In this document: piece after piece, positions 376 to 58,645 of the stretch
Layout: the number at the start of each line of letters is the position of its first letter
Position numbering within the stretch: the first letter of the stretch is position 1
Assembly (NCBI GenBank): GCA_963820595.1
Contig: CAWGAO010000008.1
Span: forward strand, 9,857 to 73,856
Direction of reading: 5' to 3'
Origin: Candidatus Tagabacteria bacterium
GTDB taxonomy: Bacteria > Patescibacteriota > Minisyncoccia > GCA-002779875
Length of the DNA: 64,000 bases
The notes under the pieces: model-generated
Databases searched by the model: none
Seen by the model: the letters and a program-made list of their open reading frames with translations, nothing else
What the model was told of the DNA's origin: nothing
Program-made: the position numbers and the translations under genes

Positions 376-573
376 GCCAAAATTATATGAACGTTAGTGA
401 ATAATAATTTTGAGCACCCGCCCAATTTTTTAACAACCCTATCAAACCGAAAAAGTCCAACATTTTGTTCCTATTCATTTTTTTATTTTTCATCATTGTT
501 ATCATAAAAATTTGGGCGGGTAAGGTTTTACAGTCGCGATTTGTCGCTTCGTTCCAAATCGCGAGTAAAGCCC
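376..573 (-). repeat. mosaic intergenic module: conserved leader box ending at rplF ATG, inverted arms (acccgcccaattttt / aaaatttgggcgggt), palindromic unit with GAACGAAGCGA loop next to rpsH stop
   Basis: repeated architecture seen ~20x in window; nested inverted repeats read directly. Confidence 0.7.
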
Positions 574-963: not shown

Positions 964-1167
964 GCCAAAATTATATGAACGTTAGTGAATAATAATTTCG
1001 AGCACCCGCCCAAATTTTTGAATTTGTCTCTGCCGAATAAAAATATTCTGGTTGCCATTTTTCATATTTCATAAAATGTAAATCTTAAAGATAATTCAAA
1101 AACTTGTGGCGGGTAAGGTTTTACAGTCGCGATTTGTCGCTAACACTCCAAATCGCGGGCCAAGCCA
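964..1167 (-). repeat. mosaic intergenic module (leader box + covarying arms + palindromic unit)
   Basis: near-identical 50-nt leader to 376-427; arms cacccgcccaaattttt / caaaaacttgtggcgggt. Confidence 0.7.
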
Positions 1168-1353: not shown

Positions 1354-1439
1354 TTTTGTTTACGAGTGCTAGCGAGTAATTACAAAAATGAGCACCCCGC
1401 TCAAATTTTGCCGCGCTAATCACTCATTATTAATAAATA

Positions 1440-1685
1440 AAGATAAATGTTGTTTATCTCTCGCCGCCTGCGCGTCCCGAACCCCGCTACTATAAATCCT
1501 TCGGATTTAAGTACGGGGCGAGTAGCTTTTAACTACTCTTGGGCGACCTGCCCCGTAGGGAACGCGAAGCGTTATCCTTCGGGGAGCGGGCGGCTATTGC
1601 GCTTCCTCGCAAAATTTGTGCGGGGTCGCCATGTTCTAGAATATAACGGATTCCAGTTATTTTTGCAACACTGACTGAATAAAAT
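1440..1685. repeat. GC-rich structured repeat, copy of family containing CTACGGGGCAGGTCGCCC core (other copy 58380-58560)
   Basis: ~200 nt alignable to rc of 58400-58560 with compensatory substitutions in stems. Confidence 0.5.
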
Positions 1686-2220: not shown

Positions 2221-2413
2221 TGATTGATTTTCTTAGCGAGCGAAGCGAGTTTTGAAAATCATCACCCCCTCTTTTACACTCTCACTCTGTTGCTTCTTTT
2301 TACCATAAGAAATTTTTTGCTTCAAACGCCGTTTAAAATATCCTCGTCTTGTCGTTGTTAAAAGAGGGGGTTCTCAAAAAATATAGTCGTCCCTCGACTT
2401 CGCTCGGGACTCC
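2221..2413 (+). repeat. inverted (+ orientation) copy of mosaic module: palindromic unit (GAGCGAAGCGA loop), arms accccctcttttac / gttaaaagagggggt, leader-like GGTTCTCAAAAAATATAGTCG, second palindromic unit abutting rplE stop
   Basis: direct reading; same order of parts as + strand modules at 41971-42171 and 44245-44488. Confidence 0.65.
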
Positions 2414-2953
2414 TTATTTTTTGGAAAATGGAAATCCTAAAAGGCGAAAAAGTTCAAGGGCTTCTTTTTTTGTTTTTGCGCTGGTGACTATCGTCGCCTG
2501 AAAACCAAAAATCATTTTGATTTCTTCTTCTCCTATTTCCGGAAATATCGTGTGTTCCTTGATGCCGATGCTAAAATTCCCCGCCTCGTCAACGGCATCC
2601 GGATTCAATCCCCTGAAGTCGCCGATTCGAGGAATGGCGATGGCAATGAGTCTGTCCAAAAAATCGTACATTCTCTGACCGCGCAAGGTAACCGAGTAGC
2701 CGGCGAGAGCGCCTTGGCGGATTTTGAAAGACGCGATTGATTTTTTGGCCGGCCGTTTTGCCGGTTTCTGCCCGGCAATCAAAGCCAATTGCTTTTCGAT
2801 AACCTCAATCTGCTTTTCGTCTTTAATGGAACCGACGCCCGTATTAACGACGACTTTAACGATTTTGGGAACGGCCATATCGTTTTTATATCCGAATTTT
2901 TCTTTCATCTTCGGAACCGCTATTTTTTTGTATTTTTCCTTAAGCATTTGCAT
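2414..2953 (-). CDS. rplE: 50S ribosomal protein L5
   Basis: protein ...GQKPAKRPAKKSIASFKIRQGALAGYSVTLRGQRMYDFLDRL... canonical L5. Confidence 0.9.
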   Translation of the reverse strand: MQMLKEKYKKIAVPKMKEKFGYKNDMAVPKIVKVVVNTGVGSIKDEKQIEVIEKQLALIAGQKPAKRPAKKSIASFKIRQGALAGYSVTLRGQRMYDFLDRLIAIAIPRIGDFRGLNPDAVDEAGNFSIGIKEHTIFPEIGEEEIKMIFGFQATIVTSAKTKKEALELFRLLGFPFSKK

Positions 2954-3137
2954 AATAGATTTTTTGAATGAGCGAAGTGAATTTTAGAAAATCATCACCC
3001 CGCCCTCTAAGCACAAATAATTCCTTTTAATTTTATTTCTTACATTAAACATCATCTTCGTAATTTCTCCAATTCTTCACGCATAGAGGGCGGGGTTCTC
3101 AAAAAATATATTCACTTCGTTCATTATTTTTTGGAAC
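2954..3137. repeat. bidirectional module: leader-like box facing rplE ATG on - strand and a second leader-like box facing + strand, arms accccgccctctaagcac / gcatagagggcggggt
   Basis: ATTCACT-containing leader on both sides of the arm pair. Confidence 0.6.
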
Positions 3138-3166: not shown

Positions 3167-3214
3167 TAAATTAGCTTGAAAATTGAATAACTTTTATCAA
3201 AGGAGGTGGCTTAA

Positions 3215-4154: not shown

Positions 4155-4341
4155 GCCAAAATTATATGAACATTAGCGAATAATAATTTTGCGCACCGAG
4201 CACATAATTTATAGCAACCTTTTTATTAAGATGTTCGAAATTTTTACTAAATCTTTTTTTGAAACTTCACTAAATTTTTCATAAAATTATGTGCTCGGTA
4301 AAGGTTTGGCGCCTATATTTTCTCGTCTAAAACTCGAAAAT
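4155..4341 (-). repeat. mosaic intergenic module (leader box ending at rplN ATG; arms accgagcacataatttat / ataaaattatgtgctcggt; hairpin)
   Basis: arm sequence differs from other copies but the two arms still match each other. Confidence 0.65.
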
Positions 4342-4573
4342 CTAGGCCAATCCCTTTACTTCCCAATGCTTGCCTCTCGACCTTGGTTTTGTTTCCTGAA
4401 TTATCACTTTATCGCCGACCTTATACTCGTTTTTCTCATCGTGCGCCTTATAGCGTTTGCTTGCTTTTCATATATTTTCCGTAAAGAGGATGTTTTGTAT
4501 AGCGCTACACCTCAACGACAACCGTTTTTGCCATTTTATCGGAAACAACAACTCCTTTTAATTTCTTTGCCAT
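4342..4573 (-). pseudogene. rpsQ: 30S ribosomal protein S17, reading frame broken by an in-frame TAG and one frameshift (probably sequence error)
   Basis: rc translation MAKKLKGVVVSDKMAKTVVVEV*RYTKHPLYGKY...; after a 1-nt shift ...[32 protein letters not shown]; expected gene-order position between rpmC and rplN. Confidence 0.7.
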
Positions 4574-4673
4574 ATGATTGATTTTCTTAATGAGCGAAGC
4601 GAGTTTTGAAAATCATCACCCCCTTCTTTTCGCGCAAGCGCGCAAAAGGAGGGGGTTAAGAAAAACATAATCG
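4574..4673 (-). repeat. mosaic module, leader variant containing a palindromic unit (rc GAGCGAAGCGA loop) ending at rpsQ ATG
   Basis: arms aaccccctccttttgcgcgc / gcgcgaaaagaagggggtg. Confidence 0.6.
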
Positions 4674-4862
4674 CTATCGCTCTTTGTTTTTCATTAAAGT
4701 TATAATTCTCGCGATATCTTTTTTTATTTCACGGGCGGCTTTCGTATTTTTGATTTTGCCATGCCCCATCTCAAAACGGAATTTTCTCAAAGCCTCACGC
4801 TTGTCTTTTAGAAGAGCAGCAAGCTCAATTTCGGTTTTTTCTCTTAATTCTTTTATTTTCAT
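4674..4862 (-). CDS. rpmC: 50S ribosomal protein L29
   Basis: MKIKELREKTEIELAALLKDKREALRKFRFE... Confidence 0.85.
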   Translation of the reverse strand: MKIKELREKTEIELAALLKDKREALRKFRFEMGHGKIKNTKAAREIKKDIARIITLMKNKER

Positions 4863-5047
4863 GCCATAATTATATGAACGCTAGTGAATAATAATTTTCG
4901 CACCCCGCCTCTAACGCTTGCGCTCTTTTTATTAAATGATTATCTTGATATTTGCTTCATAATTTTTGTTTAAATTCGTGATAGAGGGCGGGTAAAGGTT
5001 TGGCAACAGAATTTTTCGCCTACGGCTCAAAATTCTGTCCAATTCGC
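4863..5047 (-). repeat. mosaic intergenic module (leader box at rpmC ATG; arms caccccgcctctaacgc / gatagagggcgggt; 3' hairpin)
   Basis: direct reading. Confidence 0.65.
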
Positions 5048-12218: not shown

Positions 12219-12268
12219 ATAAGCGCCGTAAAAAATAAGAAAATTCTTTAGAAAAAGGGGGTTAAAAT

Positions 12269-17399: not shown

Positions 17400-17640
17400 T
17401 CTTTTTCTAAAAATCAAGGAGCGTAAGCGACTATGATTTTTGAGAACCCCGCCTTAATTTTACCGTCCACATGTAATCTAAGTTCAGAGAATTAAAAAGT
17501 TTTATTTGCTTGTTGCGAGGCGCGGACGGCGAATAGCCGCACCCCTGCCTGCCGGCAGGCAGGCCTTTTGCGCGAAGCGCCGAGCCGATACATTGGATTG
17601 TAAAATTAAGGCGGGGGTGGATTTACAAAAATTTTTTCGC
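17400..17640 (+). repeat. mosaic module copy (palindromic unit with GAGCGTAAGCGA loop; arms ccccgccttaatttta / taaaattaaggcgggggtg)
   Basis: direct reading; not next to a translation gene. Confidence 0.55.
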
Positions 17641-26890: not shown

Positions 26891-26895
26891 AAAAT

Positions 26896-27793: not shown

Positions 27794-29093
27794 TCAAAAT
27801 TTTCCGGCACAAGGGCCGTCAAAGTATAATTTTGCGCCGAAATATTTTTGCGCGACTCGCCTTATCGCCTCTCGGGAAATTTTACTGATATATTCCCTGT
27901 AATTTCGCGGGTCAAAAATGTTTTTTCTGAAATAAGCGTCAGAAAGATATTTGGCTCGTGTTCCCAATTTTTCCAGATTATCGTCTTCTCTGGAAAGAAA
28001 GAGATTTTTCGCCCGTAAAAATTCCCGCTTACTTACTAAATTGGTTTTTAAATCTTCCAGTTCTTCCAGATATGGCATTTTTGCCTCTTTGAATCGGCGG
28101 GGATCAAAACCTCCCACCGTGATATAAAAAACGCCAATACCGCCATAATCGTCATAAATGCTTTCCAATTCATCGTATCCGATTCCCTTTCCTCTTCGCA
28201 GTGCTTTAGGAAGCCGAGATGACATTCCTCCGGAAAGAATTGATTCAAGAAGAAAAAATTTAAAAGAATCGGGATGGCTAAAACCAGGAACTCTATATCC
28301 CAAGGCCATATAAGCCAGTTTCAAACCCTTTCTTTTTTTAGGCGGGGGTTCTCGGCGTCTGTTCCTCAGATCAATTTTATATTCCGGTGCCTCAAAAGTT
28401 TGTCGCTTCAATCTGCCAAAAGTTTTATCGATCGTTTTTAAAACTCCTCTCCTCGTCAAATTTTCCGCAGACAAAAATGGTCATATTTTCCGGCACATAA
28501 AATTTCTTTTTAAAAGCAATTATTTCCTCTTTGGTAATACGCTTTACCGATTTAGGAGTGCCGAGAATCGGTTTTTCCGCACAAGTTTTTCTTAAAAGAA
28601 CAGGGATAAAAAGATGTTCAAGATAATGTTCTTTCGGCGAATCAATCGATTTTTTAATTCGGTAAGAATTTCCTCGACGCTCCCGCTCAATTTCTTCTTC
28701 TTTATATTCAAAATTCTGATTGTTTCGTAGACATATCCTGATGTTTTTGGAAAGATAGCGGGGATATCCTTGGATGTAAAAAATAGTGGAATCAAAATCA
28801 GTGCCGGCGCTTATCTGGGCTCCGCCGTCTTCCACATCTTCAGTAATCTCATCGGCAGCTACGGAAACGGGATTCGAATGGATATTCGAAGTGACTGATT
28901 CCTGTTCATAAAATGACTTATTCCGCTCATTTCTTCCGTTTCGTCCCTGACGCCGAACACCGACTCCGACCAAAAAAATCAACTTTCTTGTATTCCGGCA
29001 ATTCTTCCAAAAAAACAGTAAGACCATTGAGAAGAAGAATTTTTTTGATTCCGCTGATATGGTCTTTCTCGAGAAATCCGACGCGAGGCATTT
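27794..29093 (-). CDS. M16-family (pitrilysin-like) zinc peptidase, 1-2 apparent frameshifts
   Basis: HYLEHLFI (HxxEH inverted zincin motif); SD ggagg + ATG at 29093. Confidence 0.65.
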
Positions 29094-29135
29094 TTTCACC
29101 TCCTTCCGCTAATTTTTATATTTCAAAAAACTTAT

Positions 29136-30500
29136 CTACTGGATAGTATAAAAACAAAAATCCCGTCCCGCAATTTGACGGGACGGGATTAATTCTGTTT
29201 GATTTTTAAAAATTTTACGGCCAAAGGCCTCTTGCTGAGCGGCTTCGGCTACCCGACCAACGCCCAAAAGATAAGCCGCCAAACGGGTAGTGATTTTCTT
29301 CCCATTTTTTTCGTAGATATCAACCACGCTCTTAAAAGCCTTATCCATGATTTTTTTCAACTTTTCGTTGACATCCGCTTCTTCCCAATAAAGTTCCTGG
29401 ATATTCTGGACCCATTCAAAATAAGAAACCGTCACTCCGCCGGCATTTGCCAGAATATCGGGGATAACAAAGATTCCTTTTTGATGCAAAATATCATCCG
29501 CCTCAAGCGTTGTCGGCCCATTTGCGCCTTCCGCAATAATCTTTGCCTTGATTTGCGGCGCATTATCGGCAGTAATGGCGTTTTCCAAAGCGCAAGGTGC
29601 GAGAATGTCGCAAGGCAAAAGCAATAAATCATCGTTTGAAATCTGGAAAGATCCTACAGTTAGAATTGACATAATTTACAACTGAACCATTCGCTTTTTT
29701 GACCTTTAAAACTTCATCTACATTAAGACCAGCGGGATTACAAATCCCACCCCCAGCTGTCGGAAACAGCGATAATTTTCACTCCTTCATTTTGAAGCAG
29801 TTTTGCCGTCCAATAGCCGACATTGCCGAATCCCTGAACCACTGCTGTTGCGGTTTTCGGATCAATTCCCAGATAATTCATCGCCTGCAAAGCGGTATAC
29901 ATACAGCCGCGGCCGGTTGCCGCTTCTCTTCCGAGAGAACCGCCATCACGCTAAAGGTTTGCCGGTTACCACTCCCGGACAAGGATGGCCGAGCAAGCAT
30001 GGAGTAAGTATCCATAATCTCCGCCATTCTTTTAGCATTTGTTCCTACATCAGGAGCGGGAATATCTTTATCCGGGCCAATGATGTGAGATATGGCGTAA
30101 GTGTATCTTCGTGTTAAATTCCGCAATTCGTCTTCTGACATTTCTTTCGGATTGCAGATAATTCCTCCCTTGGCTCCGCCAAAAGGAACATTCACAACTG
30201 CGCATTTCCAAGTCATCCACATTGCCAATGCCTTAACTTCATCCAAATTAACATCCGGATGATAACGTATGCCTCCTTTAGCCGGTCCCCGCGCAAAACT
30301 GTGCTGTACGCGATAGCCCGTAAAAACTTTAACATGGCCATCATCCATTTTCATAGGAAGAGGAACTTCAAAAATGTTAGCGGGCCCCCGGATAGAAAAT
30401 CTGGTTTCTTCATCTAACTTCAAAAAATCTGCTGCTCGGTCGAATTGCTCTAATGCTGTTAGATAAGGATTCTGTTTATTGTGTTTGTTTTTCCTGGCAT
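29136..30500 (-). CDS. gdhA: glutamate dehydrogenase, 2-3 apparent frameshifts
   Basis: [15 protein letters not shown] and C-terminal GDH blocks found on three frames. Confidence 0.75.
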
Positions 30501-30553
30501 ATCTTTCTACCTCCTTGTAGAATTAGTGCTTAGCATCTCCGGCAAGCCCCGTT

Positions 30554-30657
30554 AGAAGTTCAACTATAGCTTGAGATTAAGCATCCTCCGAAAGCGAATC
30601 CGCCTAATGGCTCTATCTCTAACTAAAATATAATTTATTGAAAACCTCTAACGGGGC
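30554..30657 (+). mobile_element. MITE-like palindromic element, tandem copy 1
   Basis: ccccgttagaag...cttctaacgggg termini; internal aagcgaatccgcctaatggc. Confidence 0.55.
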
Positions 30658-30730: not shown

Positions 30731-30852
30731 AACCCCGTTAGAAGTTCAGCTATGGTCTGGAGTTAAGCAACCTCCTAAAGCGAATCCGCCTAACGGCTTT
30801 GTTTTTAAATAAAATATGGGTTAGATGAAAACTTCTAACGGGGTCAACCCCC
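30731..30852 (+). mobile_element. MITE-like palindromic element, tandem copy 2 (~90% identical to copy 1)
   Basis: same termini and internal block. Confidence 0.55.
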
Positions 30853-38490: not shown

Positions 38491-38618
38491 TGTTTACCCC
38501 GTTAGAAGTTTTTAACAAAACACATTTTAAGAAAAACTAAAGCCGTTAGGCGAATTCGTTCCCTTAAAAGGTCATATTATTTAAAGCCCTACTTGAACTT
38601 CTAACGGGGTATGTGCTA
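38491..38618 (-). mobile_element. MITE-like palindromic element, inverted orientation
   Basis: cccgttagaag...cttctaacgggg with rc of internal conserved block. Confidence 0.55.
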
Positions 38619-40994: not shown

Positions 40995-41408
40995 ATGCCC
41001 ACGATTCACCAGTTAATTAAAAAAGGACGGAAAAAAATATCGAAAAAGTCAAAAGCGGTGGTTCTCCAGCGCGGTTTTAACGTCATCAAAAACCGGCCGG
41101 TTTTTTATCCTTCGCCTTTTAAACGCGGCGTCTGTATTAAAGTGACGACTATGACCCCAAAAAAGCCGAACTCTGCCATTCGCAAAGTGGCGAGGGTCAG
41201 ACTCACGAATGGAATGGAAGTTACCGCCTACATTCCGGGCATCGGCCATAATTTGCAGGAACACGCGGTTGTTCTTCTGCGAGGCGGCCGCGTCAAGGAT
41301 TTGCCGGGAATTCAATACCACATTGTCCGAGGAATTCTTGATGCCGCAGGAGTAGAAGGACGAAAAAAACAGCGTTCGGCATACGGAACTAAGAAACCGA
41401 AAAAATAA
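40995..41408 (+). CDS. rpsL: 30S ribosomal protein S12 (with ~13-aa insertion relative to E. coli)
   Basis: [14 protein letters not shown]...KRGVC...[23 protein letters not shown]. Confidence 0.9.
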
Positions 41409-41502
41409 TGAATTCGCCCGCGATTTTGAGCGAAGCGAAGAATCGCGGTTACAAAATGCGAAAACATTAAATTATTAGTCGTTTAACTCCTTAATTTTTG
41501 GC
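41409..41502 (+). repeat. minimal module: palindromic unit (GAGCGAAGCGA loop) + AT-rich leader ending at rpsG ATG, without arm pair
   Basis: cccgcgattttgagcgaagcgaagaatcgcgg ... taactccttaatttttggcATG. Confidence 0.6.
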
Positions 41503-41970
41503 ATGAGAAGAAAAATCAGAGTAAAATACAAATTAAATCCAGACCCGCTTTACGACTCGAAAAAAATCGAGAAATTTACCAATTACCTGATGTGGAAAGG
41601 AGAAAAATCCGTTGCTCGTGAAATCGTCTATCAAACTTTTGAAGAAATAAAAAAGAAAATAAAAGCAGATCCGATTGCGATTTTCGAAAAAGCGATTGAA
41701 AATGTTTCACCTATGATTGCAGTGCGCTCCCGAAGAGTCGGAGGCGCCACCTATCAGGTTCCTAGAGAAATTCCTCCTGAAAAACGCATAGGCTTCGCAA
41801 TGCGCTGGATAATTCTGGCGGCGCGGTCAAAAAAAGGCAAAAATATGTCCTATCGGCTTTCGGAAGAACTTATTGCGGCTTCTAAAAACGAAGGAGCAGC
41901 CGTTAAAAAAAGAGAAGATACTCATAAAATGGCCGAGGCTAATCGCGCTTTCGCTCATTTTGCTTGGTAA
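41503..41970 (+). CDS. rpsG: 30S ribosomal protein S7
   Basis: canonical S7. Confidence 0.9.
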   Translation: MRRKIRVKYKLNPDPLYDSKKIEKFTNYLMWKGEKSVAREIVYQTFEEIKKKIKADPIAIFEKAIENVSPMIAVRSRRVGGATYQVPREIPPEKRIGFAMRWIILAARSKKGKNMSYRLSEELIAASKNEGAAVKKREDTHKMAEANRAFAHFAW

Positions 41971-42171
41971 TGACTTTGCTCGCTATTTGGAGCGTTAGCG
42001 ACAAATTGCGGCCGCAAAACATTACCCGCCTAAGTTTTTGCGAAATAATTAAAATATGAAAAATCTAAAAAAGAAAAATTTTCAAAAATTTAATTCGTCT
42101 TTGGAGTATACCCGCAAAAATTTGGGCGGGTGTTCAAAAATTATAGTCATTAACATTCCTTAATTTTTAGC
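41971..42171 (+). repeat. mosaic module (palindromic unit, arms cgcctaagtttttgcg / cgcaaaaatttgggcg, leader GGTGTTCAAAAATTATAGTCATTAACATTCCTTAATTTTTAGC-ATG)
   Basis: direct reading. Confidence 0.65.
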
Positions 42172-44244
42172 ATGGCACGCGAATACCCTATAGAAAAAAC
42201 AAGGGATATAGGCATTATTGCCCATATTGATGCCGGTAAAACTACTGTTTCCGAGCGGGTGCTTTTTTATACCGGCGTTTCTTATAAAATCGGCGAAGTG
42301 CACGAAGGAGCGGCGATAATGGATTGGATGGAACAAGAACGGGAAAGAGGCATTACTATTACGGCCGCCGCCACGACCTGTTTCTGGCTAAATCACCGCA
42401 TCAATATTATCGACACGCCCGGCCATATCGACTTCACGGTCGAGGTACAGCGCTCATTGCGCGTCTTAGACGGCGGAGTCGTGGTCTTTGACGGCGTGGC
42501 CGGCGTTGAACCCCAATCCGAAACCGTCTGGCGACAGGCGGATAAATACAAAGTCCCGCGCATTTGCTTCGTCAATAAAATGGACCGGATGGGCGCCAGT
42601 TTTGAAAAAAGTTTTAATTCCATTCTCGAACGGCTTACTCCAAACGCCGTTGCATTAAATATTCCCATCGGCGCTGAATCGGAATTTGAAGGCGTTATCG
42701 ATCTTTATAAGATGAAAGCAATTTATTTCGAAGACGAACACGGAGAAAAAATAGTGGAAAAAGAAATACCGGAAAAATTAAAAGCGGACGCGGAAAAATG
42801 GCGCAAGCTGATGATCGAAAAAATCGCCGAGACCGACGACCATCTTCTTGAACAATATTTGAATAATCAGGAGCCGCCGGTTGAAGAATTAAAAAAAGCG
42901 TTAAGAAAAGCTTGCCTCGAATATGCTCTTGTTCCTGTTTATTGCGGTTCGGCTTTGAAAAACAAAGGCGTACAACCCATGCTCGACGGCGTTGTTGATT
43001 ATCTTCCGAGCCCGGTTGACCTGCCAGCCGTCAAAGGCATCGAACCTAATTCACACAAAGAAACCACTCGCGAAGCAAAAGATGACTCTCCTTTTACCGC
43101 TCTTGCTTTCAAACTTCAAACCGACCTTTACGTTGGGCAACTCACCTATTTTAGAGTCTATTCCGGCAATCTTGACGCGGGTTCCTATGTGTACAATGCC
43201 ACTACCGACACGAAAGAAAGAATCGGGCGAATCCTGCGGATGCACGCCAACCACCGCGAAGAAGTAAAAGAAGTCTTTGCCGGCGACATCGCCGCGACCG
43301 TAGGCCTTAAAAACACCCACACCGGCGACACGCTCTGCGATCCGGACCATCCGATAGTTTTGGAAAAAATCGAATTTCCGGAACCCGTCGTTTCTCTCCG
43401 CATCGAACCGAAAACAAAAGCCGATCAGGAAAAAATGGGTCTGGCTTTAAAGCGCCTTTCCGACGAGGACCCGACCTTCAGGATTAAATCTGATCCTGAA
43501 ACTATGGAAACCATTATCTCGGGCATGGGAGAACTTCATCTGGAAATCATCGTCGATAGAATGAAAAGAGAATTTAAAGTGGACGCAGGCGTCGGAAAAC
43601 CCCAAGTTGCCTACAAAGAAACCATAACCGCCGAAGGCGAGGCCGAAGGAAAATATATCCGCCAATCGGGTGGAAGAGGCCAATATGGTCACGTCCGCAT
43701 CAAGACAGAACCTCTTGAAAGAGGCAAAGGTTTTGAATTTATCAATTCCATAAGAGGAGGCATCATCCCCCAGGAATTTATTCCGGCCGTCGAGAAAGGA
43801 GTGAAAGAAGCGTTGGACCGCGGAGTCGTGGCGGGTTTCCCGATAGTGGACCTTTCGATCGAACTTTATGACGGCTCCTATCACGAAGTCGACTCTTCGG
43901 AAATGGCTTTCAAGATCGCCGGCTCCATGGCTTTGCAGGAAGGCGTCAGGCGCTCCAAACCGATTCTGCTCGAACCGATTATGAAAGTGGAAGTCGTTAC
44001 CCCGGAAAAGTTTTTAGGAGACGTTGTCGGAGATTTGAACTCGAAACGCGGCCACATCTTGAACATGACCGACAGGTTCAACCTTAAAGTCATCGACGCG
44101 AAAGTGCCACTTTCGGAAATGTTCGGCTACGTCACTTCTTTGCGCTCAATGACGGAAGGCCGGGCCACTTATACCATGGAATTCGACCGCTACGAGCGGG
44201 TTCCGGAAAATATCGCCCAATTAATTAAAGAAGGGAAAAAATAA
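42172..44244 (+). CDS. fusA: elongation factor G (690 aa, intact)
   Basis: [17 protein letters not shown], full-length domains. Confidence 0.95.
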
Positions 44245-44488
44245 TGGCTTGGCCCGCGATTTGGAGTGAAGCGACAAATTGCGGTTGCCAAATATTACCC
44301 CGCCCTTTTGGGCGCGAGATGTTATAATAAAACTATGGATATATTAAGTTTAAAAATTATAAAACGGCAATGCGCTTTAGTTATAACGGGATGCGCCTAT
44401 TCGGCGCCCGCGCATTGCGGAATTGAGTATGGCGCCAAAAGGGCGGGGTGCTCAAAAATTATAGTCGCTTAACTCCTTAATTTTTGGC
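44245..44488 (+). repeat. mosaic module (palindromic unit GGAGTGAAGCGA loop; arms ccccgcccttttgggcg / cgccaaaagggcgggg; leader ending at ATG 44489)
   Basis: direct reading. Confidence 0.65.
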
Positions 44489-44587
44489 ATGTCTGACGAC
44501 CAAGAACAAAAAGAAAAACTTTTCTCCGAAGAGGCCTTAGAAGACGATTTGGAAATCGAAGCAGATGTAGAAAGTTTGCCACTTTAA
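44489..44587 (+). CDS. small acidic peptide (32 aa) with its own module leader
   Basis: MSDDQEQKEKLFSEEALEDDLEIEADVESLPL; leader identical in type to rpsG/fusA leaders. Confidence 0.3.
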   Translation: MSDDQEQKEKLFSEEALEDDLEIEADVESLPL

Positions 44588-44954
44588 TTTGACAGGAATT
44601 ATCTTTTATGATAAGCTCTTACCAGAAAAATAAGGGCTTTTTTATCGCCCAAAATCTTTGAAAAAGGAGGAAAGAAATGAAAAGGATATTGGCTATAATT
44701 AAGGTTCTTGACTGTCTGTGCTATTTTAATCTGGTTTTTATTGCTTGGACGCCATATTGGGACATCTTATTTGGGAGGGCCAAAAGATGACTTTCTATAC
44801 CGACAGAGCATAGAATTATTCTACATTTATGGGATTCCCTTTTTCTCTAGTGTTCTGGTTTATTCTTTTCCGCACTGGGAAAAATGTTGAAAAGGAGAAA
44901 ATAGTGTTAGCGATAAGCGGCCTCGCGGGTCGCTGAAATCGCCAAAAATGAGGC

Positions 44955-45010
44955 AGACCGTTCGACAAGCTCACGGCAAGTCGAAAAACGGTCTGCCTTT
45001 TTATTTTTAT
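44955..45010 (+). terminator. strong terminator ggcagaccgtt...aacggtctgcc + T-run
   Basis: 11-bp stem. Confidence 0.7.
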
Positions 45011-45193
45011 TGTTTATTTACGTCACCGCAAAACGTAAAAAAACGATTTTTGGAATTAAGGCAGGTGTGGAAAATCTCTCATTATAAGGGACTTGACGAC
45101 TTAGACTGTCTTCTATAAGATAAGACTATTGCGTGTTTTTCGCGCTTTTTAATTAAAAGGTTTAATAAATAATAGTTTAAATTCAATAAAAAT

Positions 45194-46388
45194 ATGGCAG
45201 AAAAATTTGAAAGGACAAAGCCGCACGTAAACGTCGGCACAATCGGCCACGTTGACCACGGCAAAACCACTTTGACCGCCGCTCTTTTGCACGTGCTTAA
45301 TTTGGCGGGCAATAAAGTTAAAATGGAAGGCGTCAATGACATCGACAACGCGCCCGAAGAAAGACAGCGCGGCATTACCATTGCCCTTCACCACTCGGAA
45401 TACGAAACTCCGAAAAGGCACTATGCCCACATCGACGCTCCGGGCCACGCAGACTACATCAAAAACATGATTACCGGAGCCGCTCAAATGGACGGCGCTA
45501 TTCTGGTCGTTTCCGCTGCCGACGGCGCAATGCCCCAGACCCGAGAACACATTCTTTTGGCCCACCAGGTCGGCGTTCCGGCAATCATTGTTTTCCTGAA
45601 TAAAGTCGACACGGTTGACGACAAAGAATTGGTTGATTTAGTTGAAGCGGAAATCCGCGAGTTGCTTACAAAATACCAATATCCCGGAGACAAAACTCCT
45701 ATTATTCGCGGTTCGGCTTTAAAGGCGCTTGAGGCAAAATCAGTCGATGACGAATGGGCAAAACCAATCTTGGAACTTGCCAAACAACTTGGACGAATAC
45801 ATTCCTGAACCGGTGCGTGAAATCGATAAACCGTTTTTAATGCCCATTGAAGATATTTTCTCAATCGAAGGTCGCGGAACGGTTGTTACGGGCCGCATTG
45901 AACGAGGCAAAATAAAACTTAGCGATGAAGTTGAAGTAGTCGGCTTACGCCCCACTCAAAAAACAGTAGTTACCGGAATTGAAATGTTCAATAAATCCCT
46001 GGATGAAGGATTGGCGGGCGATAACGCCGGGATATTACTTCGAAGTCTCAAAAAAGAAGACGTGGAACGCGGCCAAGTTTTGGCCAAACCAGGCTCCATT
46101 ACTCCACATACCGAATTTCAAGCCGAAATTTATATCTTGACCAAAGAAGAAGGCGGCCGCCACACGCCGTTTTTTGCGGGCTATAAACCGCAATTTTATC
46201 TTCGCACAACCGACGTGACCGGAGCCGTTACCCTTCCGGAAGGCACTGAAATGGTTATTCCGGGCGACACGATTTCATTAAAAGTAGAACTTTTGGCGCC
46301 CGTTGCTCTGGAAGAGAAACAGCGATTCGCGATTCGCGAAGGAGGAAAGACCGTCGGCGCAGGAGCCATAACAAAAATCATAAAATAA
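45194..46388 (+). CDS. tuf: elongation factor Tu, one apparent single-nt insertion near 45785
   Basis: [13 protein letters not shown]...; after -1 shift [34 protein letters not shown]...; cttggacg vs expected cttgacg. Confidence 0.9.
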
Positions 46389-46440
46389 GCAGAACTTGAT
46401 TAAATGTGCAATATGCGTAACCTGAAATCATAAAAGGACA

Positions 46441-46516
46441 TTGACCCCGTTAGAGATAGAGTTTTTTAGAAACTCGACGGATATCTTCGGATATCCTATC
46501 TCTAACGGGGTTGAAA
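46441..46516 (+). mobile_element. MITE-like palindromic element ending in TTGAAA, forming promoter for rpsJ
   Basis: gaccccgttagagatagag...ctctatctctaacggggTTGAAA-16-TAAAAT-6-ATG. Confidence 0.5.
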
Positions 46517-46544
46517 TAAAACATTGAAAATCTAAAATATTAAA

Positions 46545-47093
46545 ATGGTAACCGCCAAAAAAACTGCACCTGCCCGTCTCCGCTCCTCCTCTGCTAAACC
46601 TGCCCGTCCGGCAGGCGGGGCTACGGCGGACAAGAAAAGCTACGACGGACAAGAAAAAAAGAAAACGGCGCATTCGAGCGCGCCAACGGCCAAGCCCGTG
46701 AAAAAAATCGCTAGACCCGCGGCAACAAAACTCGTTTCCGAAAAACCAATTTTTATCCCTAAACCGGGAAAGAGCGAAGTCGAGGAAAAACCGAAACTTC
46801 GCATTCGAGTGCGGGCTTACGACCACAAAATCTTAGACATCAGTATCAAGCAGATTGTGGACACGGTATTGCGCAACGGAGCGGAAATAACCGGTCCGAT
46901 TCCCTTGCCGACAGAGATACGTAAATACACGGTAAACCGATCCAGCTTTGTTCATAAAAACGCCAGGGAGCAGTTTGAAATGCGGATCCATAAGAGACTT
47001 ATAGATATCCTTAATCCCGGCCCAAAAATTATCGATGCGCTGACAAATCTGAATTTGCCCGCCGGCGTCGACATAGAAGTTAAGATGAGTTAA
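46545..47093 (+). CDS. rpsJ: 30S ribosomal protein S10 with ~83-aa Ala/Pro/Lys-rich N-terminal extension
   Basis: ...[15 protein letters not shown]... S10 core at C-terminal 100 aa. Confidence 0.85.
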
Positions 47094-47156
47094 TCAAAAC
47101 TATAAAGGGCGAAGATAAAATCGGGGCAACCCGATTTTATCATATGAAAAGCGATT

Positions 47157-47768
47157 ATGAAAAAGTTTTTACTAGCCGTTAAAAAAGAAATGAGCCAGAT
47201 ATTTGACGAAAAGGGAAATGTCATTCCCGTGACTTTAGTCGTGGCGAAGGCACTGGCCGTGACCGGAATCAAAACCAAAGAGAAAGACGGCTATCAGGCA
47301 ATACAGTTTGGATTCGGCAACCGCAAAATTAAAAATATCAAAAAGCCCCAGAAAAAATTAGGCGCGTTCTTAAAATTAAAAGAACTGCGCGTTCCTTCAG
47401 AGGAAAACATTTCCTTGAATATAGGCGATAAACTCGATGTTTCGTTATTTGGCGAAGGAGATAAAGTGGAAGTCAGCGGAATCACAAAAGCCAAAGGCTT
47501 TCAAGGCGTCGTGAAACGACACGGCTTCCACGGAGGTCCGCGCACTCACGGCCAAAAGCATTCCGAAAGGGAGCCCGGTTCAATCGGCGCAACCGCGCCC
47601 CAGCGCGTTTTGAAAGGGACGAGAATGGCCGGAAGAATGGGCGGCAAAAGAATAACTGTCAAAAATTTGGAAATTATAAAAGTCGACAAAGATAAAAACG
47701 AACTTTGGATTTCCGGCGCAGTGCCGGGAAGGCGAGGAACGCTGCTAGAAATCAGCAATGGAGCTTAA
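47157..47768 (+). CDS. rplC: 50S ribosomal protein L3
   Basis: ...MSQIFDEKGNVIPVTLV... and ...GKRITVKNLEIIKVD... Confidence 0.9.
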   Translation: MKKFLLAVKKEMSQIFDEKGNVIPVTLVVAKALAVTGIKTKEKDGYQAIQFGFGNRKIKNIKKPQKKLGAFLKLKELRVPSEENISLNIGDKLDVSLFGEGDKVEVSGITKAKGFQGVVKRHGFHGGPRTHGQKHSEREPGSIGATAPQRVLKGTRMAGRMGGKRITVKNLEIIKVDKDKNELWISGAVPGRRGTLLEISNGA

Positions 47769-48411
47769 AGTTTACAATCAAGAAGGAAAAGAAACGGGAA
47801 AAATAAAATTGCCCGAAAAGATTTTCGGTTTGCCCTGGAATCCTGATTTGGTACACCAAGTGATGCTGGCAATGCAGGCAAATAAAAGAAAAGTTACGGC
47901 TCACGCGAAAACAAGAGCCGAAGTCAGAGGCGGCGGTAAAAAACCGTGGCGACAGAAAGGCACGGGCAGAGCCAGACACGGCTCCATCCGCTCCCCTCTC
48001 TGGCGCGGAGGCGGCGTCACTTTCGGTCCTTCGACAGAAAGAGTCTACGCCCAAAAAATAAATAAAAAGATGAAAAGAAAGGCGATTTTGACGGCCCTTT
48101 CGCAAAAAGCCCGCGACGGTGAGCTGCTTATACTGGACGATTTGAAAATGGCATCCCCTAAAACCAAAGAGGCCGCCGGAATTTTAAAAAATCTTGGCGG
48201 AATAAAAGGATTTGAAAAAATGGCGGGAAAGAAAAAAAATTCCTTATTTTTATTGCCGGGAAAAAACGAAGGATTGGCGCGTAGCTTCCGCAATTTACCA
48301 AACGCAAATACTGCTTTAGCCCGCAATTTAAATCTTTTGGATATTCTTAATTATAAATACCTTATTTTTCCCAAAGAATTACTTAAAAATTCAGAAAGTA
48401 TATGGCGTTAA
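47758..48411 (+). CDS. rplD: 50S ribosomal protein L4
   Basis: ...GGGKKPWRQKGTGRARHGSIRSPLWRGGG... Confidence 0.9.
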   Translation: MELKVYNQEGKETGKIKLPEKIFGLPWNPDLVHQVMLAMQANKRKVTAHAKTRAEVRGGGKKPWRQKGTGRARHGSIRSPLWRGGGVTFGPSTERVYAQKINKKMKRKAILTALSQKARDGELLILDDLKMASPKTKEAAGILKNLGGIKGFEKMAGKKKNSLFLLPGKNEGLARSFRNLPNANTALARNLNLLDILNYKYLIFPKELLKNSESIWR

Positions 48412-48821
48412 ACATTTTCAAAAATAAAAAGGGCAAAGAAAAATCAGAAACGAAGAAAACAACCAGAAAACAAGTCGAGCCGAAAACGGTTGAAGTTGAA
48501 AAAAAACCAAAGAAAGAAGAACCAAGGATAAAAACAAAACAATCGACTTTGGCAGCGCAATTTTTATTGCAGCCCCATATCACCGAGCAATCCACTGATC
48601 TGGCCAAAAAAAATGTCTATACTTTCAAAGTCAACCCTTCAGCCAATAAAGTCATAATCAAAAAAGCGATTAAAGAAATGTACGGATTCGAGCCGATTAA
48701 AATCCGTGTAATAAATACCCATTCCAAGAAACGCTCCGTTCGGGGAAAAATCGGCACAAAGTCCGGATTTAAGAAAGCTCTTGTTTATTTGAAAGAAGGC
48801 GATAAAATCGAATTTATTTAA
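48402..48821 (+). CDS. rplW: 50S ribosomal protein L23 with ~50-aa Lys-rich N-terminal extension
   Basis: C-terminal 90 aa match L23 (...YTFKVNPSANKVIIKKAIKEMYGFEPIKIRV...). Confidence 0.85.
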   Translation: MALNIFKNKKGKEKSETKKTTRKQVEPKTVEVEKKPKKEEPRIKTKQSTLAAQFLLQPHITEQSTDLAKKNVYTFKVNPSANKVIIKKAIKEMYGFEPIKIRVINTHSKKRSVRGKIGTKSGFKKALVYLKEGDKIEFI

Positions 48822-48823
48822 AT

Positions 48824-49669
48824 ATGAAGTTAAGATCTTACCGACCTACAACTCCATCGCGAAGACAAATGACCGGATTAGTATATCGCGGAGTTTTAAC
48901 GTCTAAAAGACCGGAAAAAAAATTAACCAAGGGCTTTAAACGGGCAAAAGGAAGAAACGTGTTCGGCCGAATCACGACAAGACACAAAGGAGGAGGCGCA
49001 AAACGACTTTTCCGAGTCATAGATTTCCGCTATGATAAACACGACATTCCTGCAACGGTAAAAAGCATGGAATACGACCCGAATCGCTCCGGATTCATCG
49101 CTTTGGTCGCTTATGCCGACGGAGAAAAACGCTATATCCTCGCTCCGGCAGAAGTTAAAACAGGAGATAAAATAATCACCTCCCGAAATGCGGAGTTAAA
49201 GCCCGGAAATCGGCTCCCTTTAGGAAAAATTCCGGTCGGCACACAAGTTTTTAATATCGAATTAAAGCCCGGAGCCGGCGCAGTTTTGTGCCGTTCGGCG
49301 GGCAATTACGCTGAAATTCTGGCGCACGAAACAGGATTTGCCCATTTGAAATTGCCTTCAACCGAAGTGCGCAAAGTTCCTGACCAGGCGTGGGCCAGTA
49401 TCGGCAGAGTTTCAAAGGAAGAACACGGTCTCGTAGTTTTCGGTAAAGCGGGACGTTCGCGGCACAAAGGCATTAGGCCAACCGTGCGAGGCTCGGCAAT
49501 GAACCCGGTTGACCATCCTTACGGCGGCGGCGAAGGAAGAATGGGTCGCGGAACACGCCGGCCAAAAACCGCATGGGGAAAAATCACCGGAGGCACCAAA
49601 ACCCGCAAACGAAAAAAATATTCAAATATTTTCATTATCAGCCGCCGAAAAAAGAAAGTGAGAAAATAA
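48824..49669 (+). CDS. rplB: 50S ribosomal protein L2
   Basis: ...GRNVFGRITTRHKGGGAKR... HKGIRPTVRGSAMNPVDHPYGGGEG. Confidence 0.95.
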   Translation: MKLRSYRPTTPSRRQMTGLVYRGVLTSKRPEKKLTKGFKRAKGRNVFGRITTRHKGGGAKRLFRVIDFRYDKHDIPATVKSMEYDPNRSGFIALVAYADGEKRYILAPAEVKTGDKIITSRNAELKPGNRLPLGKIPVGTQVFNIELKPGAGAVLCRSAGNYAEILAHETGFAHLKLPSTEVRKVPDQAWASIGRVSKEEHGLVVFGKAGRSRHKGIRPTVRGSAMNPVDHPYGGGEGRMGRGTRRPKTAWGKITGGTKTRKRKKYSNIFIISRRKKKVRK

Positions 49670-49865
49670 AGGAATTTGCACGCGATTTTAAGCATCAGCG
49701 AAAAATCGCGCTTGCAAAACCTTTATCCCGCCCTCTATGCATAAATTTAAAGAAAAAATATGAAGCAAAACATCAAACCAGTAATTACAAAAGAAAAGAG
49801 CGCGAACCGCTTAGAGGGCGGGGTGCTCAAATTTAATTATTCACTAACGTTCATATAAATTTGGC
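49670..49865 (+). repeat. mosaic module (palindromic unit AAGCATCAGCGA loop; arms cgccctctatgc / gcttagagggcgg; leader box ...ATTCACTAACGTTCATATAAATTTGGC-ATG)
   Basis: direct reading. Confidence 0.65.
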
Positions 49866-50199
49866 ATGTCGCGCTCACTTAAAAAAGGGCCGTACGTAGA
49901 CCCATCAATATTGGAAAAAATCAGCCGCAGTAAACCGAATCGATGCCGGCGTTATTAAAACATGGGCGCGCAACAGCCAGATTTCTCCGGAAATGATTGG
50001 CTATACTTTCGGCGTTCACAACGGAAAAGATTTTATCGAGGCAAGAATCACCGAAGAAATGGTCGGCCACCGCCTCGGAGAATTCAGCCCCACCCGCAAA
50101 TTCATCACTCACGGAGGAAAAATGCAGCGCGAGTTAGAAGCAAAAAAGAAAGCCGCTGAAATTGCCTCAGCCCAACAGGCGAAAGTTAATGAAAAATAA
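49866..50199 (+). CDS. rpsS: 30S ribosomal protein S19, apparent +1 frameshift near 49938-49958
   Basis: [25 protein letters not shown] then stop; next frame ...[27 protein letters not shown]...[11 protein letters not shown]. Confidence 0.85.
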
Positions 50200-50378
50200 G
50201 GAGCGACAGCGACTCTATTTTTCTTAACCCCGCCCTCTAGGCACAAAAAATTGAAAAAAATATGAAAAAAATGCACAATACGAAAATTAATATCGAAGAG
50301 AATTGCTCGCGCTTAGAGGGCGGGGTTCTCATAATTTCAGTTAAATTTTATTCATTTCATTCTAAAATTTAAGAAATT
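50200..50378 (+). repeat. mosaic module (palindromic unit GAGCGACAGCGA loop; arms ccgccctctaggcac / gcgcttagagggcgggg; leader variant)
   Basis: direct reading. Confidence 0.6.
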
Positions 50379-50777
50379 ATGGAAATAAAAGCCAAATTAG
50401 GATACTTGCGTATTTCGCCCCGAAAAGTTCGGCTGGTTGCGAACTTGGTAAAAGGCTTGCCGGCAGAAACTGCCGTCAAGCAATTAACTTTCACCCGCAA
50501 ACGAGCGGCGCTGCCCCTTGCTAAGCTCTTAAAATCCGCTATCAGCAATGCTAAAAATAATTTGCAGCTTGACCCCCAGAATCTTTACGTGAAAGAATTT
50601 AAGATAGACGAAGGACCGGTGTTCAAGCGCTATATGCCGAGAGCCCGCGGAAGAGCAACTATTATAAGAAAAAGAAGGTCTCACGTTTCCCTCGTTTTAG
50701 GAGAAATAAAAGCTAAAGCCAAAAGTCAAAAAGCAAAAGGCAAAATTATAAGTAAAAAGTCAAAAGTATCTAAATAA
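50379..50777 (+). CDS. rplV: 50S ribosomal protein L22 with Lys-rich C-terminal tail
   Basis: MEIKAKLGYLRISPRKVRLVANLVKG... Confidence 0.9.
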   Translation: MEIKAKLGYLRISPRKVRLVANLVKGLPAETAVKQLTFTRKRAALPLAKLLKSAISNAKNNLQLDPQNLYVKEFKIDEGPVFKRYMPRARGRATIIRKRRSHVSLVLGEIKAKAKSQKAKGKIISKKSKVSK

Positions 50778-53459: not shown

Positions 53460-53759
53460 TTAGAAAAATAAGAAGCCTAAGCGACTATATTTTTCTAACC
53501 CCCTCTTTTACACACAGCTTTTTAGTTAAAGTTTAATAATTTATTTGATATAATAAAAAAGTGGTTTGTTTTCCGAAATTAAATTTAGTGTTAAAAGAGG
53601 GGGTGCTCAAAATTACCGCGCCCGACTTCGCCTCGACGTTTCAAGTTAAAAAATAAAATGAATATGAAAAGACAATATACAAATAAAATTGAAATTATTA
53701 TCAAGGCGTCGAAGTCGAGGCGGGCGGGTTATTCACTAACATTCATATAATTTTGGCGG
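53460..53759 (+). repeat. mosaic module with a second perfect ~20-bp-stem hairpin element nested inside the leader box
   Basis: leader interrupted between AAAATTA and TTATTCACT by ccgcgcccgacttcgcctcgacg...cgtcgaagtcgaggcgggcgg. Confidence 0.6.
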
Positions 53760-57083: not shown

Positions 57084-57301
57084 AATTTTTAAAAATTTTA
57101 GAACGGAGTGAATAAAATTTTTGTAAAATTATGAGCACCCCGCACTAATTTTGCTGTATTATTCTTATAAAAATTTTATTTCTTACAAGCTCGATATTAC
57201 TCTCGCAGTTCGCGCGCCGCGAATAGCGGCATCCCTTATTGGGCGAAGCGGACTGCCATTTTTATACCCCGCAAAATTTAGTGCTGGGGTCGCCATAATT
57301 T
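57084..57301 (-). repeat. mosaic module supplying leader box to the Fic/Doc gene (arms ccccgcactaattttgc / gcaaaatttagtgctgggg)
   Basis: rc GGGGTGCTCATAATTTTACAAAAATTTTATTCACTCCGTTCTAAAATTTTTAAAAATT-ATG. Confidence 0.55.
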
Positions 57302-58339: not shown

Positions 58340-58379
58340 ATAAAATAATTTTACTATTTTTAGTGAAAAAGATAAACCA

Positions 58380-58645
58380 CCCCGGCACCAATTTTGCGTG
58401 ATATTTCACGGCGAAGCGCTCCCCGAAGTATCCGCCTCCGGCGGAACTACGGGGCAGGTCGCCCTAACTCTAGTGGCTACTTGCCCCGCATAATCGCGTA
58501 GCGATTTGTGCGGGGTTCGCCGCACGCGCTTCGCAAAAATTGTTCTTATTTCCCGCCTATAAAGCGCCTAGCAACAAAAAAGTGGCAAAATTGATGCGGG
58601 GTGCCCAAAAATTATAGTCGTTTCACTCCTTAATTTTTGGCAAAT
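58380..58645 (+). repeat. degenerate module (no ATG at leader end) whose spacer carries copy B of the GC-rich structured repeat
   Basis: arms accccggcaccaattttgcg / gcaaaattgatgcggggtg; leader ends ggcaaata instead of ggcatg. Confidence 0.55.

Follow-up and report, generated by a model that had tools for sequence, protein, structure and literature searches.

Ribosomal-protein operons are among the most conserved and most tightly packed gene arrays of bacteria. How can repeats of 100-250 nt then come to lie between their genes, and what do they do there? The question is raised by a stretch of 64,000 nt from a Candidatus Tagabacteria bacterium (assembly GCA_963820595.1, contig CAWGAO010000008.1, positions 9,857 to 73,856 of the forward strand), hereafter the window, in which we found at least 17 modules built of short hairpins. 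That these modules are lineage-specific mosaic palindromic repeats of a Ca. Tagabacteria-like Patescibacterium is well supported. Five of them fill junctions of the str and S10 clusters (rpsL to rpsG, rpsG to fusA, fusA to a 32-aa acidic open reading frame (ORF), rplB to rpsS and rpsS to rplV), and Pfam confirms the neighbouring genes as S12, S7, L2, the C-terminal half of S19, and L22. Each module occupies the entire gap between the stop codon of one gene and the ATG of the next (Table 1; 50200-50378 for the last gap), measures 95-245 nt and comprises two or three hairpins. The leader pattern gave 5 matches against 0.10 expected, the palindromic unit motif 3 against 0.01, and the arm plus box motif 4 against 0.00. 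A previous reading of the sequence alone (the sequence-only reading) had placed five copies of identical part-order at 41409, 41971, 44245, 49670 and 50200. All five are found at these positions, and in the alignment the order palindromic unit, arm, AT-rich spacer, arm, box/leader, ATG holds for 41971, 44245 and 49670. The copy at 50200 deviates from it, as its left unit is an AT-stemmed variant overlapping the rpsS stop codon and its leader is of a third, divergent type. The leaders of the others also differ: those of the str cluster are of type A and that of 49670 is of type B.

The same junctions were compared with those of relatives. The fusA product of the window is 86-90% identical to the elongation factor EF-G of Ca. 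Tagabacteria-like metagenome-assembled genomes, and the source organism is a Patescibacterium close to Ca. Tagabacteria. In these relatives (seven loci, L081-L088), the junctions measure 1-17 nt or have overlapping codons, the gene order around them being the same. The modules are thus lineage-specific insertions. Module motifs were found neither in the loci of these relatives nor in 80 more distant genomes; a search of GTDB with EF-G gave, among the matches listed, a closest one of 70% identity, without modules, and no wing (the right-hand hairpin described below) was found in viral contigs. With the 22-nt core of the type B wing as a query, 18 independent metagenome contigs from several samples were recovered, carrying the same wing before rpsS, rpsL, rpsT, rpmJ, dnaK, ftsX, nusG, scpB and other genes; the family is therefore not an assembly artefact. 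Some of these contigs have wing-only units (L098, L095), some have short GC hairpins without spacer before the same leader (L091, L094, L097, L100, L101), and others have the long form with arms and spacer (L090, L092, L103, L105). A single junction can be found in several states. Between rplB and rpsS, it is empty in L081/L084, holds a 65-nt module with a short hairpin in L091, and holds a 196-nt module in the window. Between grpE and dnaK, L098 has the wing alone, whereas L092 has a left unit with long arms and wing; the rpsL junction has a module in L096 and none in the window. Between infA and rpmJ, only a wing is present in L095 and L099. These comparisons show a genuine, dynamic family restricted to a sub-lineage. 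Full-text searches of the literature found no description of these elements. In L097 (- strand orientation, ~3060-3080), a YqeY/GatB-like gene seems to have its start codon within the wing, where a change from TATAAA to TATGAA would have created an ATG, and the first four codons of its product (MNLA) would be derived from the wing.

The location in ribosomal-protein operons and the repeated hairpin architecture might recall an element already known, such as a cis-regulatory RNA (ribosomal-protein autoregulatory leader or riboswitch), integron attC sites, or an array of CRISPR/TIGR type. This is hardly credible given that Rfam has no match at gathering score in the window and no relevant match at E<=1 in 41300-50500, and that the same module precedes genes as unrelated as dnaK, ftsX, nusG and those for superoxide dismutase, a Fic protein and an Fe-S subunit. 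Moreover, the genes concerned are core ribosomal ones in the order of module-free relatives, and the copies are dispersed, not in tandem.

The plan of three hairpins was derived from an alignment of nine modules together with RNA folding (z = -4.25 and -5.82). The first hairpin, the left or palindromic unit (PU; CGCGATTT-GGAGCGAAGCGAC-AAATCGCG), is very stable and stands directly after stop codons. Its stem of 12 pairs is 95% paired, with changes on both sides in 7 pairs, which none of 500 shuffles reached, and slid controls were just 31-47% paired. An AT-stemmed variant with the same core (AAAAATAA-GGAGCGATAGCGAC-TATATTTTT) was found at 50192-50226, at 53464-53497 and in several contigs; it can overlap or supply the upstream stop codon (rpmC in the window; grpE in L092 vs. 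L098). In the alignment, the PU is flanked by TGC/GGC and GTT/ACT, with no GTAG-like tetranucleotide at the foot of the hairpin. The second hairpin consists of two arms whose foot is GC-rich (ACCCCGCC...GGCGGGGT; ACCGAGCAC and ACCCCCTC are among the covarying variants) and whose inner stem is AT-rich. These stems are near-perfect over 15-21 bp and enclose an A-rich spacer of about 70 nt (64-74 nt; 60-125 nt across the arm pairs), which is longer where GC-rich inserts are nested in it. The third hairpin, or wing, corresponds to what the sequence-only reading had described as a box followed by an AT-rich leader. It is a hairpin itself, of -10 to -13 kcal/mol, located 0-3 nt from the ATG; its 3' strand ends in GGCAT, and the predicted structure has both the A and the U of the start codon base-paired. 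The wing stem is 95.6% paired, 4 pairs being changed on both sides among types A, B-v1 and B-v2, and its score was matched by 0 of 500 shuffles. The PU and wing types A, B, C and D have in common the core GGAGCG-NN-AGCGAC or its complement, the left unit carrying GGAGCG..AGCGAC and the right wing the complement, on opposite sides of the arms. Wing A has as its loop the reverse complement of the PU core, which makes the module, taken as a whole, one long imperfect palindrome. A mild bias of G.U over A.C on the sense strand is present in the PU (7 vs. 3) and in the wing (13 vs. 1, mostly one shared pair). A direct-repeat organization (GCAAAACCTTA on the left, GCTCAAAATTA on the right) was rejected, no correlation being found within copies, and readings of the wing as a boxA-like antiterminator (TGCTC...) or as a sigma-54 or extracytoplasmic-function (ECF) sigma factor site were dropped as too weak in resemblance.

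The arm-spacer-arm segment (~100 nt) had been proposed to be a secondary insertion into a basal unit of hairpin and leader, always at one position of the leader. The copy at 41409 indeed has no arms, only the palindromic unit and the leader; when aligned with the rest, it matches them left and right of a gap that corresponds to arms and spacer. Together with the intermediate forms in other contigs, this alignment makes it well supported that the segment is a nested sub-element, acquired or lost separately. As for the direction of the change, the 41409 copy could equally be a deletion derivative: it may never have had arms or may have lost them. The single insertion position did not survive the comparison. 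A second arm pair of another subfamily (ACCGCGCCCGACTTCGCC...; 53616-53728, same type in L107) is situated inside the leader, between AAAATTA and TTATTCA and within the 5' arm of the wing, so that the position is not unique. Deletion of 53616-53728 gives back the canonical wing GCTCAAAATTATTATTCAC exactly, with nothing duplicated. Target-site duplications were looked for at the arm boundaries and none is visible (..TTA before the first arm, TGCTC after the second); every arm insertion comes after TTA. The basal unit of hairpin and leader is itself an insertion relative to close relatives. In addition, the spacers fall into families whose members are found at loci unrelated to each other (417-520 with L103, 42024-42131 with L090, 53498-53604 with L105).

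The long near-perfect arm stems and the very stable PU directly after stop codons would suit intercistronic elements of RNA processing or stability, as in the early region of phage T7, with RNase III cutting the arm stem. The upstream mRNA would then be stabilised at its 3' end by the PU, and the downstream mRNA would begin with the wing. RNase III, RNase J and PNPase are the RNases retained in Patescibacteria (PMC12641178). Such a function is nevertheless quite improbable as the explanation of the family, because modules with short arms or without arms exist, initiation without a Shine-Dalgarno (SD) sequence after cleavage would be left unexplained, and the arms show no wobble bias specific to the RNA strand.

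Conservation within the modules is concentrated at the end that meets the gene. Among the five wing-B modules of the window, identity is 90.5% in the wing, 54% in the left part and 41% in arms plus spacer. For 22 of 23 distinct wing-B copies, the start codon lies 0-3 nt downstream or, in one (L097), inside the wing, the exception being the degenerate L107. Genes led by a module have no SD sequence, and many other genes of the window have AAGGAGG.

These features could also be those of a promoter, and wing B carries TATAAT or TATAAA exactly at -12..-7 from the A of an ATG that is offset by 0-3 nt. The modules would then be cassettes in which the upstream hairpins end or stabilise the preceding transcript, and the wing, a -10-only promoter, starts a leaderless mRNA from the A of the ATG. 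The lack of an SD in the wing is consistent with this explanation. In relatives, rpsL has a -35-like TTGACG, TTGCAT or TTGACA ~15-16 nt upstream of a TAATAT/TATAAA that itself lies 8-9 nt before the ATG, which makes near-leaderless mRNAs plausible in the clade. Yet no -35 or extended -10 (TG) is found at a usable spacing and a consensus scan called no promoter in any wing, although the genome has canonical TTGACA-17-TATAAT promoters (3140-3170). Wing types A, C and D have no well-placed -10, and the promoter scan of the spacers gave only one weak match (50251-50279). In the scan for intrinsic terminators, no T-runs follow the hairpins at PU or arms, save for a weak 5-bp call at 49816, and the overall count equalled that of shuffles. 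This explanation accounts neither for the covariation of the wing stem nor for the ORFs described below, and we consider it improbable.

The spacers differ in composition between the strands, A accounting for 31-57% of the nucleotides on the sense strand of the gene. We searched for ATG-initiated ORFs of at least 20 codons running from the spacer to 0-25 nt before the gene ATG, only the spacers being shuffled in the control. Such loop ORFs are present in 10 of the 14 long modules, against 2.8 expected (p = 1.3e-5), and in 8 modules they end within 10 nt of the gene ATG, against 1.9 expected (p = 1e-4). Each has 28-45 codons and begins in the spacer, in the context AAAAAATATGAA. The frame then crosses both the right arm and the wing, and its stop codon precedes the gene ATG by 6-9 nt in 8 modules and by 16-20 nt in 2. 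With a looser criterion, i.e. any ATG ORF leaving the spacer, 11/14 modules are positive on the sense strand and 0/14 on the antisense strand. An indel of 1 nt in the box between 49670 and L092 leaves the frame intact. Apart from the tail encoded by the wing, the peptides are not conserved; an open frame has been maintained rather than any protein. A complete relay of ATG ORFs, from an overlap with the stop codon of the upstream gene (TAATG) up to the start of the next gene, exists in 4 of 12 modules (modules 2 and 3, L090, L103), against 0.23 expected. In the wing-only L098 and in the armless copy at 41409, a stop codon is placed at the 5' base of the wing, that of the latter belonging to a 20-codon ORF (41408-41470).

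Our preferred reading, to which we give about an even chance, is that of a repeat family of REP/BIME/MITE type (see below for these families) that would keep translational coupling by termination-reinitiation. The modules have been inserted precisely in stop-start junctions, including those of the str, S10 and spc operons, where the genes of relatives are tightly packed. In the polycistronic transcript, the downstream gene would have its SD-less start codon hidden in the wing hairpin (-10 to -13 kcal/mol), and a small ORF would begin at an AUG of the unstructured A-rich loop, in the context AAAAAAUAUGAA; the ribosome translating it would melt the right arm and the wing, terminate 6-9 nt (sometimes 16-20 nt) before the gene AUG and re-initiate there. 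In some modules, a first ORF overlapping the upstream stop codon (TAATG) would complete the relay from gene to gene, and in wing-only copies the upstream stop codon itself would lie at the wing base, so that termination there would melt the wing. A cassette of this kind would be tolerated between essential coupled genes since it leaves them coupled. We put forward more tentatively, as a possibility that we hold with distinctly less confidence, that the module is a mobile intercistronic cassette with its own coupling device, made of a ribosome-loading A-rich loop, a relay mini-ORF and a start-masking hairpin, which could invade the essential operons of a reduced genome of the candidate phyla radiation. 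It would impose a single SD-independent mode of initiation on many housekeeping genes.

Several observations weigh against the coupling explanation. A cruder test, based on the longest open frame in any frame, did not exceed dinucleotide shuffles. The copies are related to each other, and the p-values therefore overstate their independence; by eye, we counted ~8 spacer families, 7 of them with a loop ORF. No loop ORF was found in the modules W4152, W4860 and L107, the short-hairpin modules have only a G/AUG ORF of <= 7 codons, and the full relay exists in only 4-5 of 12 modules. The loop AUGs also lack an SD, and their own initiation has to be assumed (A-rich, S1-type). The full nucleotide conservation of the wing exceeds what coupling alone would need, and the exact position of TATAAT suits a promoter equally well. 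The mismatches in the arms show no clear bias of G.U over A.C. Finally, the wings at 17407-17446 and 58603-58641 face no gene.

Some of these points agree with purely selfish or neutral palindromic repeats (REP/REPIN/MITE-like) settled in gaps, the ORF signal and the proximity to start codons being by-products of insertion preference and purifying selection. Every unit is a hairpin, at least 17 copies are present in 64 kb, presence and absence vary among relatives, and two copies (17407-17640, 58603-58641) are those without a gene in front; in addition, the metagenome contigs that carry modules are mostly short (1-6.5 kb), and the arms have no strand-specific G.U bias. We nonetheless consider neutrality rather unlikely. 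It fits poorly with a wing conserved at ~90% next to arms plus spacer at 41%, with the orientation of wing B toward a start codon at the distance given above, and with a spacer composition and ORFs specific to the sense strand. Furthermore, insertions in essential coupled operons must at least supply the initiation of the downstream gene.

The modules work like several known repeat families and resemble these most, yet lack some of their defining features. Repetitive extragenic palindromic (REP) sequences of enterobacteria and pseudomonads, with their mosaics (bacterial interspersed mosaic elements, BIMEs) and REPINs, are mobilised by the REP-associated tyrosine transposase (RAYT); they are likewise short imperfect extragenic palindromes of high copy number, with units in alternating orientation and linker motifs forming mosaics, and they too are located right after stop codons, within operons as well. 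REPINs in particular, which are ~100-nt hairpins of two inverted units and a spacer, resemble the modules. In contrast with REP elements, the modules have no flanking tetranucleotide of GTAG type and are unrelated in sequence, their right unit is locked to the next start codon, where it replaces the ribosome-binding region, and their loop is strand-asymmetric (A-rich) and carries ORFs. No RAYT was seen in the 64-kb window, and no transposase domain was found in 10 unassigned ORFs examined there. Miniature inverted-repeat transposable elements (MITEs) share terminal inverted repeats (TIRs), small size, the absence of a transposase gene and presence/absence polymorphism at orthologous sites, but the modules have no target-site duplication. 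Correia elements (CREE/NEMIS) of Neisseria are also MITE-sized inverted repeats between genes (100-150 bp); they are co-transcribed, their hairpins are cut by RNase III, and their ends can supply promoter elements. They have 26-bp TIRs, a TA target duplication and a site for integration host factor, whereas the modules have no TA duplication, arm sequences that vary between copies (e.g. ACCCCGCCC.., ACCGAGCAC.., ACCCCCTC..), three hairpins, and an end fixed 0-3 nt from the start codon. BOX (boxA-boxB-boxC) of Streptococcus pneumoniae and ERIC/IRU of enterobacteria are modular or long imperfect palindromic intergenic repeats as well, which fold in the mRNA and can change the expression of neighbouring genes. 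They have no sequence relation to the modules and are not placed from stop to start, and we know of no relay ORFs in them.

Rickettsia palindromic elements (RPEs) offer a parallel in another reduced genome, as selfish palindromes of ~100-150 bp that are tolerated since the frames stay open and the RPE is translated. An RPE lies within a coding gene, and the protein comes to include it, whereas the modules are intergenic, would be translated as separate mini-ORFs, and only occasionally give the last codons or the stop of a gene (rpmC; grpE of L092). In known systems of termination-reinitiation or structure unmasking (trpB-trpA, the MS2 lysis gene, ermC/cat leader peptides), an SD-less start is found within a few nt of a stop codon and is enclosed in a hairpin which the upstream ribosome has to melt, as predicted for the modules. 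The coupling is there built into a single locus, whereas the modules would carry it on a repeated, apparently mobile cassette at many junctions. What is new in the modules is the stop-to-start placement in ribosomal-protein operons, the SD-less wing locked to the start codon and the ORF in the loop.

The modules, present here in a Patescibacterium with a minimal genome, show that junctions of ribosomal-protein operons can be colonised. If the relay ORF and the masked start are real, they would represent a portable module of translational coupling, i.e. selfish DNA making itself harmless or even useful, as well as a natural case of genome-wide SD-independent re-initiation and a compact, reusable part for the design of synthetic operons. 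In practice, the repeats may account for assembly breaks at these genes in this lineage, and gene callers will output spurious small proteins from modules. A 68-codon ORF in the module between rpsH and rplF (383-589, - strand) is the predicted protein P0121 of a public protein collection, and similar module ORFs are annotated there as P0122-P0125; these annotations are likely to be gene-calling artefacts caused by the repeat.

Beyond the five modules of the str and S10 junctions, the window has at least 12 others (Table 1). Eight of these belong to, or adjoin, the spc-type cluster of the minus strand (rplP to rpmC to rpsQ to rplN, around rplE, and rpsN to rpsH to rplF), and others precede genes for an Fe-S subunit, a Fic protein and superoxide dismutase.

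Table 1. Coordinates of the modules, their parts and the adjoining genes in the window (w/o, without)
Feature	Position	Strand	Remark
rpsL	40995..41408	+	str cluster
Module 1, armless	41409..41502	+	rpsL stop to rpsG ATG; left hairpin and wing only
Module 1 PU hairpin	41418..41448	+	core GAGCGAAGCGA
Module 1 wing hairpin	41469..41502	+	type A, w/o SD, adjoining ATG
rpsG	41503..41970	+	str cluster
Module 2	41971..42171	+	rpsG stop to fusA ATG
Module 2 PU hairpin	41979..42011	+	
Module 2 left arm	42024..42042	+	
Module 2 right arm	42113..42131	+	
Module 2 wing hairpin	42132..42171	+	type A
Module 2 relay ORF 1	41970..42059	+	29 codons; ATG overlaps rpsG stop (TAATG); stop overlaps next ATG (ATGA)
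Module 2 loop ORF	42056..42163	+	35 codons; start in A-rich spacer, stop 8 nt before fusA ATG
fusA	42172..44244	+	str cluster
Module 3	44245..44488	+	fusA stop to ATG of acidic ORF; extra GC-rich insert nested in spacer
Module 3 PU hairpin	44254..44284	+	
Module 3 left arm	44297..44315	+	
Module 3 right arm	44432..44449	+	
Module 3 wing hairpin	44450..44488	+	type A
Module 3 relay ORF	44244..44327	+	ahead of loop ORF; TAATG overlap with fusA stop
Module 3 loop ORF	44335..44472	+	45 codons; stop 16 nt before ATG
Acidic ORF	44489..44587	+	32 aa
rplB	48824..49669	+	S10 cluster
Module 4	49670..49865	+	rplB stop to rpsS ATG
Module 4 PU hairpin	49679..49711	+	
Module 4 left arm	49725..49740	+	
Module 4 right arm	49809..49824	+	
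Module 4 wing hairpin	49825..49865	+	type B; TATAAA at -12..-7 from A of ATG
Module 4 loop ORF	49760..49858	+	32 codons; stop 7 nt before rpsS ATG
rpsS (split)	49866..50199	+	S10 cluster
Module 5	50192..50378	+	end of rpsS to rplV ATG; AT-stemmed left unit 50192-50226 over rpsS stop
Module 5 left arm	50227..50244	+	
Module 5 right arm	50309..50326	+	
Module 5 wing hairpin	50327..50378	+	type C; -13.2 kcal/mol, AUG within stem
Module 5 loop ORF	50262..50372	+	36 codons; stop 6 nt before rplV ATG
rplV	50379..50777	+	S10 cluster
Module, rpsH stop to rplF ATG	376..573	-	PU, arms 417-520, wing B; one frame open throughout module (ORF 383-589)
Module, rpsN stop to rpsH ATG	964..1167	-	PU, arms, wing B
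Module upstream of rpsN	1354..1640	-	arms 1395-1625; nested GC-rich structured element 1458-1608
Module downstream of rplE, between convergent genes	2264..2422	-	left unit 2371-2422, arms 2264-2371
Module between divergent genes	2954..3112	.	wing D (2954-2996) toward rplE, arms 2997-3096, wing-like arm on + side
Module, rpsQ stop to rplN ATG	4155..4341	-	arms 4196-4298, wing B
Module, end of rpmC to rpsQ ATG	4574..4685	-	rpmC stop TAG in left-unit loop; short arm hairpin 4618-4656; wing D 4574-4617
Module, rplP stop to rpmC ATG	4863..5047	-	PU variant with covarying stem, arms, wing B variant
Module w/o gene start after wing	17407..17640	-	arms 17447-17616, degenerate wing A 17407-17446
Module before Fe-S subunit gene	53464..53759	+	left unit, first arm pair to ~53604, second arm pair 53616-53728 within 5' arm of wing B
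Module before Fic-domain gene	57084..57288	-	arms 57138-57288, wing C-like 57084-57137
Module near superoxide dismutase gene	58340..58641	.	arms 58381-58601, nested GC-rich element 58398-58534; one wing toward the gene (- strand), wing A 58603-58641 (+) w/o gene behind

The GC-rich elements of ~135-150 nt nested in the AT-rich spacers of two modules (1458-1608 on the - strand, 58398-58534 on the + strand) have a common core, GCTCCCCGAAG[hairpin]CTACGGGGCAGGTCGCCC...GCGGGGTTCG. Their consensus fold has 35 pairs, 10 of them with compensatory changes between the two copies, and loops UUCG/UCCG and GAAG/GUAG. Neither Rfam nor viral contigs gave a match to this element, which may represent a structured RNA not described so far or another nested repeat. 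The window also contains a second dispersed family of inverted repeats, TTGA-CCCCGTTAGAAGTT...AACTTCTAACGGGG-TTGA, with loops of 30-80 nt and a sequence unrelated to that of the main family. Its copies were found at 1699-1760, 30547-30656, 30733-30843, 38497-38609 and 46445-46510, one of them just upstream of a gene starting at 46545.

Many genes of the window, essential ones included, look broken: rpsQ (4342-4573, - strand) by an in-frame TAG and a frameshift, rpsS by a frameshift near 49930-49960, and tuf (45194-46388), which, like several metabolic genes, is fragmented into 2-4 ORFs. Broken genes were also noted at 8970-10396, 11193-12238, 17732-18855, 25702-27581 and 28425-30354. Either an error-rich assembly or gene decay may be the cause, and, given these broken genes, a few interrupted loop ORFs could be sequencing errors.

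In a relative of 90% identity (L089), a gene for a 23S rRNA intervening-sequence protein (PF05635; 507-878), and not rpsG, is located upstream of fusA. The acidic ORF that follows fusA is found clade-wide, with 29-32 aa (also L084 12081-12176, L087 8467-8565 and L088 2421-2510), a conserved C-terminus (..LEIEADVE(N/S)LPL) and no Pfam match. Since it begins 1-5 nt past the fusA stop codon in relatives, it has the look of a genuine small protein whose translation is coupled to that of EF-G.

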